A DNA stretch of 64,000 nucleotides from an uncultured Sandarakinorhabdus sp. (lineage in GTDB: Bacteria; Pseudomonadota; Alphaproteobacteria; Sphingomonadales; Sphingomonadaceae), in contig CAZAWH010000001.1 of assembly GCA_964488775.1 (NCBI GenBank), positions 1,269 to 65,268 of the forward strand. Direction: 5' to 3'. The notes below the pieces were generated by a model. The model searched no databases and had not been told where the DNA came from. It was given only the letters and a program-made list of their open reading frames with translations. Made by a program: the position numbers and the translations under genes. Shown here piece by piece: positions 2,307 through 14,312 of the stretch (position 1 is the stretch's first letter; each line of letters begins with the position of its first letter).

Positions 2307-3546
2307 AGCGCAGCACCGTGACCGGATCGGTGGAGGCGGCCTTCCACGCCGGATAGAGCGTGGCCAGGAACGACAGGCCCAGCGCCAGCACGACAATGCC
2401 GAGCACTTCGACCGGATCGGTCTTGGCCGGCAGCAGGGTGAGATAGCGCACCGAAGGATCCCAGATGTTGGTGCCGGTCACCGCCGACACGCCATCCACG
2501 ATGGGCTGGCGGAAGGTGAGCAGCAGAAAGCCCAGCGCCAGGCCCGAGGCCACGCCCGCCGCACCGATCAACGTGCCCACCGCCATGAACACCCGCATCA
2601 TGCTGGCGCGGCTGGCGCCCATGGTGCGCAGGATGGCGATGTCGCGCGTCTTGGCCCGCACCAGCATGATGAGCGAGGACAGGATGTTGAACACCGCCAC
2701 GACGATGATGATGGACAGGACCCAGAACATGACCGTCTGTTCCACCACCAGCGCCGAGAACAGCGCGGCGTTGCTGCGCGTCCAGTCGTTGACCACGGCG
2801 ATGCCGGCGAGCTTCTGGCGGATGGGTTCCAGGATGGCGGCGGCGCGGTCAGGATCGGTGGTTTCCACCTCGATCATGCCCACGGCGGCATCCAGGCGCA
2901 GCAGGGTCTGGGCATCGGCCAGTGGCATGATCACGAACGCCTTGTCATAATCATAAACGCCCACTTCAAACACCGCGACCACGGTGTAGGCAACGATGCG
3001 CGGCACCGTGCCGAAGGGCGTTGATTGCCCGGCCGGGTTGATCAGGCTCAACTGGTCGCCAACGCGCAGGCCCAGTTGTTCGGCCAGGCGCGCGCCGATG
3101 GCAATCGTGTCGGCCCCCGGCTTCAGCGCGTCGAGCGCGCCGGCCCGGATATTGGTGGCGATGGTGGGATTGGCCTTGATGTCGGCAATGCGCAGCCCGC
3201 GCAGGATGACGCCTTCCACCCGGCCGGCCGCACTGCCCATCAACGGCTGTTCGATCATCGGCACCGCCGCCGTGACCCCGGGCAGCGCCTTCACATCGGC
3301 CGCCACCTGTTCCCAATTGTCGAGCCGCCCGCCATAACCCTGCACCACGGCATGACCGTTCAGCCCGATGATGCGGTCAAACAGTTCGGCGCGAAAGCCG
3401 TTCATCACGCTCATCACCGCAATGAGGGCAGCGACGCCCAGCGCCACCGCCACCAGGCTGATGCCGGCGACCAGGAAGATGAAGCCCTCCCCCTGCCCCG
3501 GCGTCAGATAACGCCGGATGACCAAGCGTTCGTGTGCGGTGATCAA
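2299..3546 (-). CDS. lolE: Lipoprotein-releasing ABC transporter permease (LolC/E family)
   Basis: [17 protein letters not shown] and [10 protein letters not shown] motifs; 4-TM layout; proS-lolE-lolD-dnaE synteny. Confidence 0.92.
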
Positions 3547-7695: not shown

Positions 7696-10600
7696 TCAGC
7701 GCGGTTGTGACAGCCAGCGCAGGGCGGCGCGGCCGGGCAGGAAGAAATAACCGCCGCCCTTCATCGCCACCCATTGCTGCAGACCTGTCAGGCGAACGGG
7801 GCCGATCGCGGTGGGCAGGGTGAAATTGCCCTGGCCCAGCAGCGGGTCAATCTCGCCGGCCAGGCCATGGAAGCTGGGGCCCATCAGCCAGCGTTGCTGG
7901 ATGAATTCGAACTGGCGTTCGATGTCGGCGCAGATGGCGGTGAACATCAGGCCGCGTTCCTCCCCCTCACGGTAGGGTCGGCCGCGGCGGATCAGGCGGT
8001 GGCGGTTGATGGTGGCCAGGCTTTCGGGATCACGGATGTCCAGCCCGTCGCGCGGGTTGGCGCGGCGGATATGGCTGCCCAGCGGGCAGGCCAGGCCTTG
8101 CGGATCCTCGTGGGCAAAGCCGAAATCATTGTGCGCTTCCCCACTGCCGCCGGGGCCGGCGCGATCGATCAGCGGCGTGCCGTCGGGCCAGCGGCCGATG
8201 ATCTTGGCCGCCACCCATTGGCCATCAATGGTTTGCCCGATGCTGCTGGCCAGATGCGGGCAGCGGCCGTTGAGATCGGCGGCAGCGGCGGCGGTGCCGG
8301 CGGCAAATCCCTCCACATTCTGGGCGAGCCGGCGCACCACCAGGAAGCTGCCGTTGCGGCCAAAATCACGGAAGGCCGGCGGATGGTCCGGCGTGAAATC
8401 GGGATAGGGGCGGCTGGGTTCCGCCGCGGCGGGCAGCAGGCCAAGCGGGTCATGCCCGGCCTCCAGCCGCAGCGGCGGCGCGACATAGCCCTGATTGCTG
8501 GGATGGCCGAGCAGCACTTCGCCGGCTGCCATCTGATCAGTGGCAGGCCGGCGGCGCCAATCGGCGGTGTGGCGGATGACCGGCTGGGAAATGCCGTCGC
8601 GAAAGCCGAAATGATCCACGTCCAGGCTGTCCGGATCAGGGCCATTGCCGCTGGGGCTGGTGATCACCTGGTGGGTGATGGGCGCGATGGCCGCAACGGC
8701 AGCGATGGCGGCGGCGAGGCGCTGGGGCGTGTCGCAGGCCAGAATCAGGCAGGCATCGGCGGCATCATAAGCGGCAAGGCCGGCCGCGTCCCAATCGCCC
8801 GGATCGCCCAGGATGGTGGCACGCGCCTGCATGCCCGCCATGAACGCCAGCGGGAAACTGGCGAGGCCATGGGCGCTGTCTGGCCCCGGCAGGCCAAGCC
8901 TGGCCAGCCCCGCCGGTGACAGGGCGAGGCTGGCGCTGGCGGCAAGGCGCGGCGCGCCCGAGGGCAGATCGCCAAAGCTGACCGGGGGCAGATCCCCTTC
9001 CCCCGCCACCAGTCGGGCCAGCGCCCGATTGGGATCGCCGGCGGGCAGATCGAGGAACAGATGGGCGCCGTGGACCAGGCTGCCCATGGCGCGGAAGACG
9101 ATGCTTTGCACCTGGGCGGTGTCCACCACCTCGGCCGGGCGCGGGGCGCTGCCCAACAGGCTGAGCAGATCCTGGGCGGCTGCTTCGTCCGCCGCGCGGG
9201 CCAGGCCGTGATGGATCAGGGCCTGGGCGCGGATGCGATCCAGCGTCAGATCGGGCAGCGAACTGTACCAGACATGGGTGAGCCGCTGTTGCCGCCGCAC
9301 CCAGCGCTTGAACAGATCGCCGTTCTTCGCGCCTTCCAGCACGAGATTGCGGGCCGGCGGGAAGCCGACTCCATGGCTCCATGCCGCGGTCTGGCCTTCG
9401 TGCGCCTTGGTGATGAAATCCTCGAGATAGGATTCCCAGGTGCCATCATAATTGCTGAAGAAGATCAGTTTTTCAGCATCGGGCAGGCGCAGCCAGCGGG
9501 CAAAGTGGATGGTGCCCATGGTGAGGATGAAGCCGGACCTGGTATAGTGGGTGGCGAAGACCTTGATGCCCCACATGGCAAAGGCGAAGGTGAGCCGACG
9601 CAGCAGGCCAGGCTTGAAATCGGAACAGGAAATGATGTGGCTCTGTTCGTGGCCAGCCGCATTTTCAGCCGCCGCGATGGCGAGGCGCCGGGCCAGATCG
9701 GGATCGCGGGTGTCAGGCGGGTCACTGGCTTCCAGTTGGCCCAGTGCCCGCACGGTGAGGAACAGCAGCAGCCCCCAGAACAGCACGGCAGCGAGCAGGC
9801 CGACGGCAGTGCAGATCACCGCCTTGGCCAGCCACAGGCCGGGGCCGAGCAGGCCCCAGCAGGCAAGACCGACGAGCAGCGCCGGCACGGCCGCGATGGC
9901 CGGAATCCAGCGGCCAGCCGGTGAAACCAGATACGCGATCACCCCGCCCCAGAAGCCCGGCCAGGTGAAATTGACAAAGGGCAGCCGCTGCCGGCCGGGC
10001 ACGAACAGCATCGGGCGCAGCCGGGCGGCGTCGCTGGCCAGATCCGTCGGCGCGCTGGCTGGATCGGCCAGCATGGCGCGGATGGCAGCCACTGTCGCCA
10101 GCGCCGGCTGGGCCTGGCCGCGGCTTTGCTGCTGCACATGATCGGCGGCACGGCGGACGAAATCGGCCAGATCGCGGCGGCGGCGCTTCATGGCGAGCGT
10201 GAAGCCGGTGGAGCCGTTGTAGAGCAGGCCGGTGGTGCCCCAGGGGCGCGGCCGCACATCCAGCCGGTGGCGGGTGAGGAATAGGAACAGGCTGGCCCGG
10301 CCGTCCCAGGCGCTGACCCGCTGGATCAGGGCAACCAGTTCGGCCGGCGGGCTGGCAAAGATCGCAGCCAGGGCCTGTTCCTCTTCGCCATCGGCGGAAA
10401 TCTCGATCAGCAGGCGCACATCGGGAATGGCCGGCGTGCCGACATCCAGCGCGTTGATCGACAGATAATGCACGATGCCCAGCCCATCGAGCCACTGGCG
10501 CACCGCCGGGCCAGCCGGGTTGCCAAAGCCGATCAGCGCGGTTTCCAGCGCCGCCAGCTCTGCCGGATCGGTGATCCCGCGCAGCACCGGCACATTCAGC

Positions 10601-11985
10601 GTGATCATCGCATGCGCCGCCGGGCCGGCCGGAATCGCCGGGCCATAGCGCACGTCCAGACGGCGCGGGAACGGGCCGGCCAGTTCGGTCTTGCCGGCGC
10701 GGGCGAGACCAGGCTGGGCAAAGAGCAGCATCAGGATGCCGGTCATCTGCTCCGTGCTCATATATTGGCCGATGCAATTGTGCAGGCCATGGCCGAACAT
10801 CAGGTTGGGGGCATGTTCGCGCCCCCGCCAGCGATCGGGATCGAAGCGGCCGGGCCGGGGCCATTCCCGGCGATCGTGCATGGCAGCCGCCGTGGCGGCC
10901 AGCACCACGCCGCCATTCGGGCCCGTGCGGAACTGGCCTGGATCAAGCGCCGGGGCCATGCGGCACGCCTCCAGCGCGATGCGGCGCATGGCGTCCCGGT
11001 CACCGGCCTGGGCGGCCTCCACCGCCTGCTGGAACGGGCCAGGGTGGCGCAACAGCCAGTCAAAGGCCTTGCCGCCGGCCAGGGTGGTGGTGGGGCCAAG
11101 GCCAATGGCGAGGCCCGTGATGATCGACCGGATCAGGGCATGATCAGCCGGCGCCAGCCCCGGCCCGCCCGCCATGAGGGTGGCGGCCAGCGCCCACATC
11201 AGGCCCTTTTGCCCGGCCAGTGCGTCGCGGCCGGCCGCATCCAGCGGGGCCAGCGCCGCCACGGCGCCAGCCAACTGCGCGTCGATCAGGGCGCGCAGCC
11301 GCCAGCCGGCGTGCTGGGCCAGTTCGCGGGTGGTGGCCGTGCCGGTGGGGTCGCCGAACAACATGGCCGACATGGCCAGCGTCCAATCCGAATATTCGTC
11401 CACGTCGGGCGGGCTGAGGCCGAGAAAGTCCGCGCCGGTTTGCGCCGTCACCCGGGCAAACACATCCTTCATCACATCGATCTGGCCATCGGCATTGGCC
11501 AGCAGCGCCGCAGTGATGCCGTCGGTATCGGCCATGAAGCGGGCCTTCCAGGCCTGGCCGCCGGCCATGGCCGCTTCCACCAGCGCGCGCTGGCTGGCAT
11601 GGGCCGGCCCTTCGGTGCCCAGCATGAACGGCGGGCGCAGCGCCGGATCGGCCCCGGCCGGCGCCGGGCCATGCGCCAACAGGATCATTTCCGCCCCGAA
11701 TGGCACCGGATAGGTTTCGGAATCGTTCAGCACCGCCATCACGCTGCTGTGCCGGGCCATGATGGTGAGATTGAAAAACGGCAGGCGCAACGTGCCGAAC
11801 AGCCGGGCCAGCCAGATCACCGCCGCCATCAGGGCCAGCACGCCCCAGCGGAAGGCCCGCGCCAACACGCCATTGGCCGGTGCCAATCGTTCCAGCCGAA
11901 ACACGACCTGGGCCAGATCCTGGCCGGCCAGATGCCATTCGGCCGGGGCATCCGGCACCGGATATTTCAGTTTGAACCCGGCCAT
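7696..11985 (-). CDS. Cytochrome P450 - membrane-anchored linker domain - DyP-type peroxidase fusion (1429 aa)
   Basis: P450 motifs: ExxR (EACR), PGRFDPDRW and heme motif FGHGLHNCIG. DyP motifs: HFGFRDGISQP (GxxDG), GSHIRRANPRD, RLIRRGRPY and QFEFIQ. Two hydrophobic helices lie in the middle region. Confidence 0.9.
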   Translation of the reverse strand: MAGFKLKYPVPDAPAEWHLAGQDLAQVVFRLERLAPANGVLARAFRWGVLALMAAVIWLARLFGTLRLPFFNLTIMARHSSVMAVLNDSETYPVPFGAEMILLAHGPAPAGADPALRPPFMLGTEGPAHASQRALVEAAMAGGQAWKARFMADTDGITAALLANADGQIDVMKDVFARVTAQTGADFLGLSPPDVDEYSDWTLAMSAMLFGDPTGTATTRELAQHAGWRLRALIDAQLAGAVAALAPLDAAGRDALAGQKGLMWALAATLMAGGPGLAPADHALIRSIITGLAIGLGPTTTLAGGKAFDWLLRHPGPFQQAVEAAQAGDRDAMRRIALEACRMAPALDPGQFRTGPNGGVVLAATAAAMHDRREWPRPGRFDPDRWRGREHAPNLMFGHGLHNCIGQYMSTEQMTGILMLLFAQPGLARAGKTELAGPFPRRLDVRYGPAIPAGPAAHAMITLNVPVLRGITDPAELAALETALIGFGNPAGPAVRQWLDGLGIVHYLSINALDVGTPAIPDVRLLIEISADGEEEQALAAIFASPPAELVALIQRVSAWDGRASLFLFLTRHRLDVRPRPWGTTGLLYNGSTGFTLAMKRRRRDLADFVRRAADHVQQQSRGQAQPALATVAAIRAMLADPASAPTDLASDAARLRPMLFVPGRQRLPFVNFTWPGFWGGVIAYLVSPAGRWIPAIAAVPALLVGLACWGLLGPGLWLAKAVICTAVGLLAAVLFWGLLLFLTVRALGQLEASDPPDTRDPDLARRLAIAAAENAAGHEQSHIISCSDFKPGLLRRLTFAFAMWGIKVFATHYTRSGFILTMGTIHFARWLRLPDAEKLIFFSNYDGTWESYLEDFITKAHEGQTAAWSHGVGFPPARNLVLEGAKNGDLFKRWVRRQQRLTHVWYSSLPDLTLDRIRAQALIHHGLARAADEAAAQDLLSLLGSAPRPAEVVDTAQVQSIVFRAMGSLVHGAHLFLDLPAGDPNRALARLVAGEGDLPPVSFGDLPSGAPRLAASASLALSPAGLARLGLPGPDSAHGLASFPLAFMAGMQARATILGDPGDWDAAGLAAYDAADACLILACDTPQRLAAAIAAVAAIAPITHQVITSPSGNGPDPDSLDVDHFGFRDGISQPVIRHTADWRRRPATDQMAAGEVLLGHPSNQGYVAPPLRLEAGHDPLGLLPAAAEPSRPYPDFTPDHPPAFRDFGRNGSFLVVRRLAQNVEGFAAGTAAAAADLNGRCPHLASSIGQTIDGQWVAAKIIGRWPDGTPLIDRAGPGGSGEAHNDFGFAHEDPQGLACPLGSHIRRANPRDGLDIRDPESLATINRHRLIRRGRPYREGEERGLMFTAICADIERQFEFIQQRWLMGPSFHGLAGEIDPLLGQGNFTLPTAIGPVRLTGLQQWVAMKGGGYFFLPGRAALRWLSQPR

Positions 11986-12007: not shown

Positions 12008-13675
12008 TCACCCCGGTTGCAGGGCGAGCAATGGTTCCTTCAGGAAGCCGTTCCACTGTGCATTGCGGAACGGAATCCAATCGATGTAATCGGTGCGGAA
12101 GCCGGGCCGGGCGGCCACCAGTTCGGCCAGGGCCTCGGCCGCCGCCTGATCATTGCCGGCCCGCCATAGCGCGTTGATGCGGGTGACATGGGCATGCCAA
12201 TAGCCCGGCTGCAGCGCGATGGCGGTTTGGGCGCGGGTTTGCGCCGCGGCCCATTCGCCCTGCAACAACAGCGCCAGCGCCAGTTCCGCCTCCCGGTAAA
12301 AGCGGCGGAAATCGTGTGGCGACAGGCGCAGCGCGGTTTCCAGCCATTCCGACGCCGCCAGCGGGCGGCTGTTGAGGATGTGCAATGTGCCCAATTGCTC
12401 ATGCGCCATGGCCAGGCTGGGGCTCAGGGCCACCGCTTCGCGCAGCCAGGTTTCCGCCGGGCCCATGTGGCGCTGCCACATCTCCGAAATGCCCACCAGC
12501 AGATGGGCGCGGCCATCCCGGCGGTCCAGATCGACCGCACGGCGCGCGGCCTCACCAAAGGCAGCGACCTCGTCCGGCCCGGCGCGGCGGCTCCACAGGC
12601 GATAGCCCAGATTCTGCGCCCATTCGATGGCGGCATTGGCCGATTGCGGCGCCAGGCGCAGGGCCTCGGCAAAAAAGCCGGAGGCGGCCTCCAGATCGGG
12701 TTGGGACAGGCGGTTCTGATGCCAGCGGCCACGCCAGATCAGATCATTCACATCCAGCCGATCCGCCGGCAGACTGGCCACGCGCCCCTGCTCGGCATCG
12801 TCAAGCCGTTCGGACAGGATGGCGACCATCTGATCGATGATCGGCAGGATGGCATTGGATTCCTGCGGATTTTGCAGCTCAAGCGACGGCGAGCAGACAA
12901 TTTCGCCATCCGCGCAGCCCATCAAGCGGCCCGACAGCAGCCAGCCGCCCAAGCCGCGCCGCAGCCGCCCGCCAAAGACATAGGCCGCCCCCAGCCGGCG
13001 CCCGGCCTCCAGCACATCCTCGCCGCCGCCAACGGCAAAGCTGTTGCCCGACCCAATCACCTTGAGCCAGCGCAAGCGGGCGATGCGATCGGCCAGTTCG
13101 TCGCCGATGCCGGCGGCAAGATAATCGGCCGCCGGATCGCCGCTTTCGTTCACGAACGGCAGCACGGCCAGGAGGGCCGGCGGGCGCGGCGCGGCAAAGC
13201 CTTCCGGGCGATGCGGGGCATCCGTGCGCTGCTGGGCCAGCCAGACTCCGAAATCAGGCGCGCTAGGGATTTCCATCCCTTCCAGCAGGTTCTGCCCCGG
13301 TTCGGCCGGCAACAGATCATAGAGCAAGGGATCAAGCCAGACACGCCGGCCTTCGGCGCGCAGCAGGCCGGGGGCCACCACGTCCAACTGCTTGCGCAGG
13401 CGTGACAATTCCTTGCGCAGGCTGGCCTGGCCCTGCTCTTCGGCCCGGTCTCCCCACAACTGGCGGCGCAGCCAGTCGCGGTTGTGTTCCTGACGGGGCA
13501 GCAAGGCCAGCATGGCGATCAGCGCCTGGCCCTTGCGGCTGGCCAGATCGATGCGGCGGCCATCGGCGGCAAACAGGCGGAACGGCCCGTGCACACCAAT
13601 GCGAACCCGTGCTGCCTGCGCGCCCAAATCACTGCCCCCAGCCGGGGTGCCCTCCCCGTTCACATCACGCTCCAT
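12008..13675 (-). CDS. Putative transcriptional regulator: SARP/OmpR-like winged helix, TolB-like (adenylate-cyclase-associated) domain and TPRs
   Basis: N-terminal GPFRL...KGQALIAMLAL...RDWLRRQLWGD...QASLRKELSRLR, central LAVLPFVN...YLAAGIGDEL, C-terminal TPR-like ALRLSP repeats. Start uncertain (13690, 13675 or 13663). Confidence 0.8.
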   Translation of the reverse strand: MERDVNGEGTPAGGSDLGAQAARVRIGVHGPFRLFAADGRRIDLASRKGQALIAMLALLPRQEHNRDWLRRQLWGDRAEEQGQASLRKELSRLRKQLDVVAPGLLRAEGRRVWLDPLLYDLLPAEPGQNLLEGMEIPSAPDFGVWLAQQRTDAPHRPEGFAAPRPPALLAVLPFVNESGDPAADYLAAGIGDELADRIARLRWLKVIGSGNSFAVGGGEDVLEAGRRLGAAYVFGGRLRRGLGGWLLSGRLMGCADGEIVCSPSLELQNPQESNAILPIIDQMVAILSERLDDAEQGRVASLPADRLDVNDLIWRGRWHQNRLSQPDLEAASGFFAEALRLAPQSANAAIEWAQNLGYRLWSRRAGPDEVAAFGEAARRAVDLDRRDGRAHLLVGISEMWQRHMGPAETWLREAVALSPSLAMAHEQLGTLHILNSRPLAASEWLETALRLSPHDFRRFYREAELALALLLQGEWAAAQTRAQTAIALQPGYWHAHVTRINALWRAGNDQAAAEALAELVAARPGFRTDYIDWIPFRNAQWNGFLKEPLLALQPG

Positions 13676-13715
13676 GCCCTGTTCAAGCACTGCTTAACAT
13701 CTTATTTTTGTTGAA

Positions 13716-13744
13716 GTCACGTTTTATTCACGCCACCTTCACGC
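13716..13744. promoter_or_regulatory. Three phased direct repeats, candidate winged-helix regulator binding site
   Basis: TCACG at 13717, 13728 and 13739 (gTCACGt, tTCACGc, tTCACGc), an exact 11-bp period. Confidence 0.6.
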
Positions 13745-13855
13745 GCTAGTAACTGGCCCTTGCATCCGGCTTGGCGCATTCAGGTTTCAGCGGGACAGAA
13801 GCTGATTCTCTCCCCCAACTGGTTCGGGCGGGCGGTGCACATCCGCTCACCCAAT

Positions 13856-14118
13856 CAGGTTGCAGGCGAAATGTTGCCGATGTTCGACCCGCATCGTCAA
13901 CATCCAACCTGTGACAGGCCGGCACCGGCGTTGCGGTGGGCGGTTGGCGTTTCCGGGTGGCCTGGCTGTTTGACCCGCAGCCTGGCCACCGGCACGCCAG
14001 ACGCCCGATCCCTTCCGCAGCAGGTGCAGCAACGGCCACCCATCGGCATCCACGCGATGCCGGTCACCAAGGAGGTGCGCCCGCCTGTTTTGACCCTGCA
14101 GGCGGGCGCACCGACCTT
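13856..14118 (+). ncRNA. Array of three long stem-loops with conserved 9-nt loop TTYGACCCK (candidate ncRNA or structured DNA element)
   Basis: 13871-13903 ATGTTGCCGATG-ttcgacccg-CATCGTCAACAT; 13956-13990 GGTGGCCTGGCTG-tttgacccg-CAGCCTGGCCACC; 14074-14112 GGTGCGCCCGCCTG-t-tttgaccct-g-CAGGCGGGCGCACC. Strand is tentative. Confidence 0.6.
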
Positions 14119-14237
14119 TCGGGGCCTGACACATGCCAATGCGGCAACCAGGCGACCATCCAAACACAGCTCATGACACCGCACCGGCCCGCGCTGGCGG
14201 GACGAGACGTACACATTCGAAAGACAGTTGGAAAAGT

Positions 14238-14312
14238 TGGCTGGGGCGCCAGGATTCGAACCTGGGAATGGCGGTACCAAAAACCGCTGCCTTACCGCTT
14301 GGCGACGCCCCA
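14238..14312 (-). tRNA. tRNA-Gln (anticodon TTG)
   Basis: TGGGGCGTCGCCAAGCGGTAAGGCAGCGGTTTTTGGTACCGCCATTCCCAGGTTCGAATCCTGGCGCCCCAGCCA forms a cloverleaf with a TTCGAAT T-loop and encoded CCA. Confidence 0.97.

Follow-up and report, generated by a model that had tools for sequence, protein, structure and literature searches.

In the Csr/Rsm systems, single copies of a motif lie in mRNAs and multi-copy non-coding RNAs stand behind a dedicated activator; CsrB, RsmY and RsmZ are such activator-driven RNAs, and the single copies of their loop occur in quorum-sensing-linked mRNAs. A different use of small RNAs is found in Escherichia coli, in which DsrA lowers the translation of hns. The cuckoo RNAs (CcsR/RSs0680, alpha-r14; PMC4615179) carry two to four hairpins with one C-rich loop motif and compensatory changes in their stems. 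For GsrN and CcnA of Caulobacter, PMC5869019 and PMC8959179 describe a C-rich hairpin loop that pairs with a G-rich leader (katG; ctrA and gcrA). MucR is described as H-NS-like in PMC10746212, and how its silencing is lifted was termed unknown in 2025 in PMC12560781.

The locus studied here lies in a window of 64,000 nt from an uncultured Sandarakinorhabdus sp. It is very probably a functional non-coding RNA, and the element and a regulator gene stand head-to-head. The features that matter are these:

7696-11985, minus strand: P450-like/Dyp-type peroxidase (P450-DyP) fusion gene, 3' of the regulator gene and its usual, not constant, partner
12008-13690, minus strand: gene for a regulator of 560 aa, probably starting at ATG 13675, with a SARP/AfsR-like winged helix, an alpha/beta middle domain and TPR repeats
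13717-13743, plus strand: three TCACG direct repeats with an 11-bp pitch (13717, 13728, 13739), putative site of the divergent regulator
13753-13782, plus strand: putative -35 (CTGGCC) and -10 (CATTCA) with an 18-nt spacer, placed by alignment
about 13787-14130, plus strand: the non-coding RNA, ~340 nt, from its fold and RNA-library contigs; both ends are deduced, the start from the promoter-like pattern and the end from the last helix
13787-13858, plus strand: P1 and P2, 5' hairpins with variable loops (fold, alignment)
13859-13915, plus strand: P3 arm, loop UUCGACCCG at 13883-13891 (covariation; compensatory A13871G/T13903C)
13917-14037, plus strand: P4 long arm, loop UUUGACCCG at 13969-13977 (fold; covariation weakest of the three)
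14044-14062, plus strand: P5, a short hairpin with a non-conserved loop (fold)
14063-14125, plus strand: P6 arm with loop UUUGACCCU (14089-14097), best conserved of the units
14241-14312, minus strand: tRNA gene, read as tRNA-Gln, outside the element and its neighbour at some loci

The original prediction, made from the bare sequence, had described three long hairpins with different stems and one shared loop, TTYGACCCK. The 9-mers lie at 13883, 13969 and 14089, exactly where they had been placed, and their arms of 12, 13 and 14 bp (92, 92 and 100% complementary) agree with the 12-14 bp and at most one mismatch proposed for them. A TG/CA step next to the loop is present as described in hairpins 1 and 2 but lies one pair further out in hairpin 3, whose 9-nt loop is closed by a U.G pair; for loops 1 and 2 the folding program adds a closing U.G pair, leaving 7-nt loops. 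Hairpin 1 does extend outward, although the program favours an outer helix at 13859-13866/13908-13915 instead of the CAGGTTG/CAACCTG pairing first suggested. The further hairpins expected 5' of the arms were recovered by folding at 13787-13814 and 13819-13858, together with one at 14044-14062 that had not been foreseen. The recommended comparison with shuffled controls gave -200.4 kcal/mol for 13780-14130 on the plus strand (z -8.0, equalled by 0 of 100 shuffles), the minus strand being weaker (z -5.1). Just 3 of 66 genome sites of TTYGACCCK cap a stem (at least 10 of 12 pairs), all of them in the element, and BLAST of the 3.1-Mb genome found no second copy; by both routes the element is single copy and not the genome-wide repeat that had been named as a refutation, and the many genome copies typical of REP or dispersed palindromic repeats are not seen.

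An orthologue of the regulator (67-100% identity) is encoded in 9 of the 61 genus genomes, the next best proteins reaching 43-44%. A model of the 3' hairpins found the element in the same nine genomes (E <= 6e-8) and at no comparable score in the other 52; as the positives had served as its training, weight lies with the misses and with the score of 46 bits at L123, a locus outside the training set. Further members come from three metagenome loci, and the family has two main subtypes of about 350 and 480 nt. Searching relatives and recording neighbours, as had been proposed, ties the homologous hairpins to one regulator clade, and the RNA remains by the regulator even where the tRNA or P450-DyP gene is missing. 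Fold z-scores run from -3.4 to -9.3 across 12 element loci (25 shuffles each). Stems of P6 are paired in 144 of 144 cells in these loci versus 81% with swapped arms, those of P3 in 81% versus 58%, and those of P4 in 70% versus 61%. The P3 alignment holds 10 double-sided changes, a number that 0 of 500 shuffles reach, and when 18 chosen units are pooled, pairing is 87% and covariation scores 0.92 versus 0.23; these shuffle tests are inflated by kinship, yet slid registers nevertheless score far lower. P3 and P6 are 188-206 nt apart in 11 of the 12 loci. As judged from this comparison of sequences, the structure is under selection. The common loop persists across relatives as a core, N2-4-GACCC-N, and not as the full 9-mer, and since units were chosen on GACCC, only their flanks test the shared-motif claim.

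Among variants of the element, the P2 loop bears GACCA in L002, L057 and L058, and the longer subtype (L055, L056, L059, L121) has an invariant CCCAGGACGCGGG tip in place of the P4 loop, AGGAC being found only there. A hairpin with the stem of the L002 P6, but with a 4-nt loop, lies past the end of an ftsZ-like gene (L136:1546-1580). The tRNA T-loop is a fixed 5-nt U/G-N-N-R-A loop on a C-G pair; a mimic of it was rejected, as 2-4 variable bases precede GACCC in the element loops.

In Rfam 15 the tRNA is the sole match of the window, and the best score on the element is 25.9 bits versus 69 required, so that the original failure to recognise a named family is upheld. We found no prior description of the RNA in the literature searched. 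A direct DNA search of 41 relatives gave a single real match, and 34 pattern matches in viral contigs reached at best 23 bits with the model and included no arrays. Pattern matches across the class (125 of 401 genomes) were discarded, the 30 loci checked scoring at most 19.5 bits and many being Leu-Thr-Leu codons. The element represents an undescribed family of non-coding RNA, so far restricted to one genus, and the earlier reading as a multivalent RNA is borne out by the covarying stems, the single regulator clade, the RNA-library contigs and the lack of a dispersed repeat.

The RNA-library contigs come from two libraries of two studies and lie wholly within the element: one spans 13808-14069 (5 differences, depth 3) and the other 13845-14016 (3 differences, depth 57.5). 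Both turn the pair A13871-T13903 into G-C, a compensatory change, and the regulator gene is nearly uncovered in both libraries. The runs were retrieved using this very stretch and the contigs are unstranded, without ends or level; they support, short of proof, that the element is transcribed. A consensus scan found no promoter or terminator, and the putative -35/-10 pattern aligns with GATAAT/GATAAG/TAxxxx of relatives. At least two TCACG boxes are present at 12 of 12 element loci. At distant regulator loci a box pair in divergent orientation occurs in 23 of 55 versus 0 of 1648 control windows, and in opposite orientation in 3 of 55. The boxes are likely the binding site of the divergent regulator, and from the way the pair faces the divergent gene at distant loci we infer that members of the regulator family switch on the transcript diverging from them; in the element clade this would be the RNA.

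The N-terminus of the regulator matches AfsR/SARP weakly (NCBIfam E 3e-4; PDB 8hvr E 1e-4), comparison of structures returned TPR matches only, and we found no literature on the family. At distant loci (30-44% identity) the divergent partners are S8 protease, SDR, LuxR and methyltransferase-like genes, and no element is present there. In Rhodopseudomonas/Bradyrhizobium, a cluster of 14 loci (among them L064-L067, L074, L075 and L078) has a PatA/PatG-like S8 protease gene opposite the regulator family and its TCACG boxes. The P450-DyP fusion is a protein of 1429 aa, its middle part of no assigned family, and is coupled to the regulator across Sphingomonadales.

A generic hairpin model finds the same loop on covarying stems at other loci of the genus. 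A GACCC hairpin lies within the 3' part of a core gene for a LuxR-HTH plus transmembrane protein (LuxR-TM) at 38 of 49 genus loci (G000:C160, about 3047, in the genome of the window) versus none of 16 in other genera, and the Asp-Pro codons there are the rare dicodon GAC-CCT at 17 of 24 loci versus 40 of 2991 genome-wide. The 3' end of genes for a LuxI-type synthase (PF00765) has a UU(U/C)UGACCCUG-type hairpin and then a CCCUCC-loop hairpin at all five loci found among 10 genomes searched; the five have near-identical loops and closing pairs, with or without a site in mucR, and P6 is near-identical to this hairpin. The module between luxI and the next gene, its two stems covarying, is a candidate 3'-derived sRNA or leader (L425 at G000:C121, about 6026, minus strand; L422-L424, L426, L296). 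The CCCUCC-loop hairpin is present in the LuxR-TM mRNA as well. Arrays of 3-5 GACCC copies follow the membrane gene of the LuxR-TM operon at 7 of 52 genus loci, some of which end short of the region, and none of the array genomes carries the stand-alone RNA. At least three lineages have such arrays, which lie in the interval from the membrane gene to uvrA (L287, L353, L354, L358, L363, L366, L367).

Several other observations concern this operon and its surroundings. In the genome of the window (L344:2433-4140, G000:C160) it lies before uvrA and encodes the LuxR-HTH plus TM protein, a helical protein of ~125 aa with a conserved late Cys, and a membrane protein. The gene for the last of these was found in 58 of the 61 genomes of the genus and in 194 of the 401 of the family; neither downstream protein matches a family at the cut-off. 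The linker-coding region is rich in RNA hairpins. Past the LuxR-TM stop (L344, about 3210-3245), a GGTCGTC-type loop hairpin is followed by its complement GACGACC, a pair that covaries in L280 and L303 and is possibly a pseudoknot or an alternative fold in the leader of the small gene. A match of the generic model at the rpsU 3' end was left uncounted, being a short-loop hairpin whose GGGTTGACCC self-pairs. In a sister genus (L380, L381, L383) long hairpins with GCCCT/GTCCT loops follow the membrane gene and the mucR leader contains GAGGGTCA, which may represent a similar system built on a different loop. L175:4174-4510 holds a permuted, two-piece tmRNA with the tag ANDNEAFAIAA.

A candidate target emerged from the suggested search with the loop complement, which listed mucR among 13 genes in a scan that used crudely called gene starts; a weakness of any mechanism built on it is that mucR was chosen post hoc from these matches. 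GGGTC at -35 to -5 is found in just 39 of 2572 called genes of this genome, and it is not enriched at gene starts. The sequence GGGTC-R-(A)GGA adjoins the mucR Shine-Dalgarno (SD) in 9 of 9 bearers of the element versus 14 of 46 others, a count confounded by kinship because the site is clade-wide: in the mucR tree the bearers form two groups inside one clade, most other members of which share the site, and clade members without a multi-copy RNA still have it (10 of 10). Among the 44 genomes with both kinds of data, GGGTC ranks first of 321 mucR leader 5-mers for multi-copy carriers (15/15 versus 12/29), the arrays having been found later and by a separate route, and it again ranks first outside the main clade (5/5 versus 2/19, of 122). 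Kinship accounts for much of this association; the support outside the clade amounts to two lineages, and in one of them (G045, G053, G006) the site lies in a leader hairpin and does not adjoin the SD. Orthologous leaders do not conserve GGGTC above average (2/10, median 0.2, rank 324 of 656) in 319 leader pairs from 800 kb of the 3.3-Mb G068. A genus-wide scan for a GGGTC-SD-ATG pattern was uninformative. Self-kissing was dismissed, GGGTC being present in just 4 of the 12 elements, where it is itself paired.

The pairing predicted between the P6 seed UUUUGACCCU and mucR AGGGUCAAGG comprises 10 nt with two G.U pairs, would cover most of the SD and has an energy of -14.2 kcal/mol, placing mucR third of 2567 start regions; mucR ranks tenth among them for P4 and 145th for P3, which pairs just 5 nt. 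In G050 mucR reads GGGUCG, and its P6 loop is the sole one of 12 with C at the matching position (one event). In the fold predicted for the leader, part of the site is taken up in pairs, five central bases having an unpaired probability of 0.11-0.46. Hfq is encoded in the genome, and among the papers listed we found none on an sRNA acting on mucR.

The CCCUCC loop invites a similar comparison. In mucR leaders L207-L261, most non-clade members of the genus show a hairpin with GGAGGAGG 20-35 nt before the start and separate from the SD. Scored in 45 cases, the GGAGG leader hairpin and the CCCUCC hairpin occur together in 20, neither in 17, the leader alone in 7 and the CCCUCC hairpin alone in 1, on a background for the leader feature of 8/2572. 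Outside the genus, none of three readable mucR leaders of CCCUCC-hairpin genomes has GGAGG, and GGGTC is present in two of three versus none of seven without the CCCUCC hairpin. The in-clade luxI modules retain CCCUCC although mucR there lost GGAGG.

How might these pieces fit together? The best reading, which we favour tentatively, is that the element acts as an antisense RNA with multiple seeds and blocks the translation of mucR. The SARP-like/TPR regulator would bind the TCACG boxes and the plus-strand RNA would be transcribed; its GACCC loops, with P6 as the best seed, would pair with the GGGUC adjoining the mucR SD, and the resulting occlusion of the ribosome-binding site would lower MucR translation and lift silencing. 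The single hairpins of the luxI 3' end and the LuxR-TM mRNA would then be mRNA-derived versions of the same seed, so that quorum-sensing and SARP-type inputs would meet at MucR. GsrN and CcnA provide proven examples of C-rich loops acting as seeds (PMC5869019, PMC8959179), and the GACCC hairpin travels with the CCCUCC-loop hairpin in the luxI and LuxR-TM RNAs. Nevertheless, the long rigid arms and the copies within genes suit protein binding at least equally.

A close rival, almost as probable, is that a protein binds N2-4-GACCC-N hairpins at sites in luxI/next-gene and LuxR-TM mRNAs and is titrated by the RNA of the window and by the 3' arrays. Single copies in mRNAs combined with a multi-copy RNA under a dedicated activator resemble Csr/Rsm, and the frequent cis hairpin in LuxR-TM with its rare dicodon, the kept P3-P6 spacing and the constancy of the luxI loop irrespective of the mucR site all suit a binder. 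Counting against pairing with mucR are G056, where a perfect UUUUGACCCUG hairpin is kept after luxI and mucR is without the site, and several LuxR-TM loci of the same kind. As for the decoy, the analysis found no candidate binder: CsrA/RsmA gave 0 matches (control positive in 3 of 14) and a DUF1127 gene was not found in the 95%-complete genome, and the structure predicted for the small protein of the operon is a simple helical hairpin, for which the fold search returned nothing. The complementarity to mucR would also have to be coincidence. Pairing with mucR and titration of a protein are not mutually exclusive; the original prediction had offered both kinds of mechanism, as a multi-seed sRNA and a protein sponge. 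A bolder extension of pairing with mucR, possible but rather unlikely, is a genus-wide counter-silencing code in which the GACCC/CCCUCC hairpins of luxI and LuxR-TM, repeatedly amplified into multivalent RNAs, would all target the mucR leader, quorum sensing and pathway activators together shutting down MucR.

It is improbable that the RNA pairs mainly with other G-rich leaders, for instance those of its own regulator or of P450-DyP, and with mucR incidentally. The regulator coding start has GGGGTCGAA in L053, L054 and L124, P450-DyP leaders are G-rich, and the P450-DyP start in the window offers a 9-bp bulged match, but neither match is kept in other bearers and there is no broad GGGUC regulon. 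Less probable still is a structure acting in cis or as single-stranded DNA (leader, terminator, REP-like, transposon end) with no function in trans. Folded as DNA the element reaches z -7.8, the strand and ends of the transcript are deduced, and tRNA and integrase genes are neighbours at some loci; against this, the element is single copy per genome, its bearers share no downstream same-strand gene, its G.U pairs function on the plus strand only, and the RNA contigs cover it and leave the regulator gene nearly bare. The single-stranded DNA hairpins offered as an option in the original prediction are unlikely, although folding energy by itself does not speak against them. Finally, there is next to no chance that the ORF at 13760-14176 (138 aa) encodes a small protein and the structure is incidental, for although the frame is open in the window and gives one weak peptide match to L002, there is no Pfam match, the distance from P3 to P6 takes values in every one of the three frames, and the 12 loci keep no reading frame in common, none being open throughout.

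With a named candidate target, a likely activator and operator and a loop motif of its own, the family is directly testable. If the mucR reading is right, freshwater Sandarakinorhabdus would have an RNA route for lifting MucR silencing; an sRNA directed at the ribosome-binding region of mucR would add a new anti-silencing route parallel to that of DsrA and hns. If the element is instead a decoy, it would point to a new RNA-binding regulator in a genome where no CsrA was found, and luxI and a LuxR-type gene would already be known sites of it. The restriction to one genus so far limits the reach of the family.

The element belongs to none of the cuckoo, CsrB or REP families, and is filed under none because the defining motif of each compared family is lacking. 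With the cuckoo RNAs it shares alphaproteobacterial hosts and one loop motif on variable, covarying stems; it differs in a loop that is GACCC, not CCUCCUCCC, and not anti-SD, in arms of 55-120 nt within an RNA of 340-480 nt, in its link to a SARP-like/TPR regulator, and in a genome where no DUF1127 gene was found. A search of the genus for tandem CCTCCTCC RNAs of cuckoo type gave nothing conspicuous, its hits being scattered over 11 of 61 genomes and the control uninformative for a palindromic pattern. The element has no Rfam or sequence link to GsrN or CcnA, and the likeness lies in a C-rich loop and the G-rich leader of a key mRNA, predicted in our case; one main loop acts there, whereas the seed of the element is repeated and is also present in mRNAs. 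Like CsrB, RsmY and RsmZ it is a multi-copy loop RNA with single copies in quorum-sensing mRNAs, although, compared with CsrB and RsmZ, its loops are without the repeated GGA, its stems are far longer and no CsrA was found in its genome. Under the reading that we favour, the closest functional parallel would be DsrA and hns, where an sRNA likewise lowers the translation of a xenogeneic silencer: RNA and protein are unrelated in the two cases, and where DsrA has one seed the element would bring several identical ones to the task.
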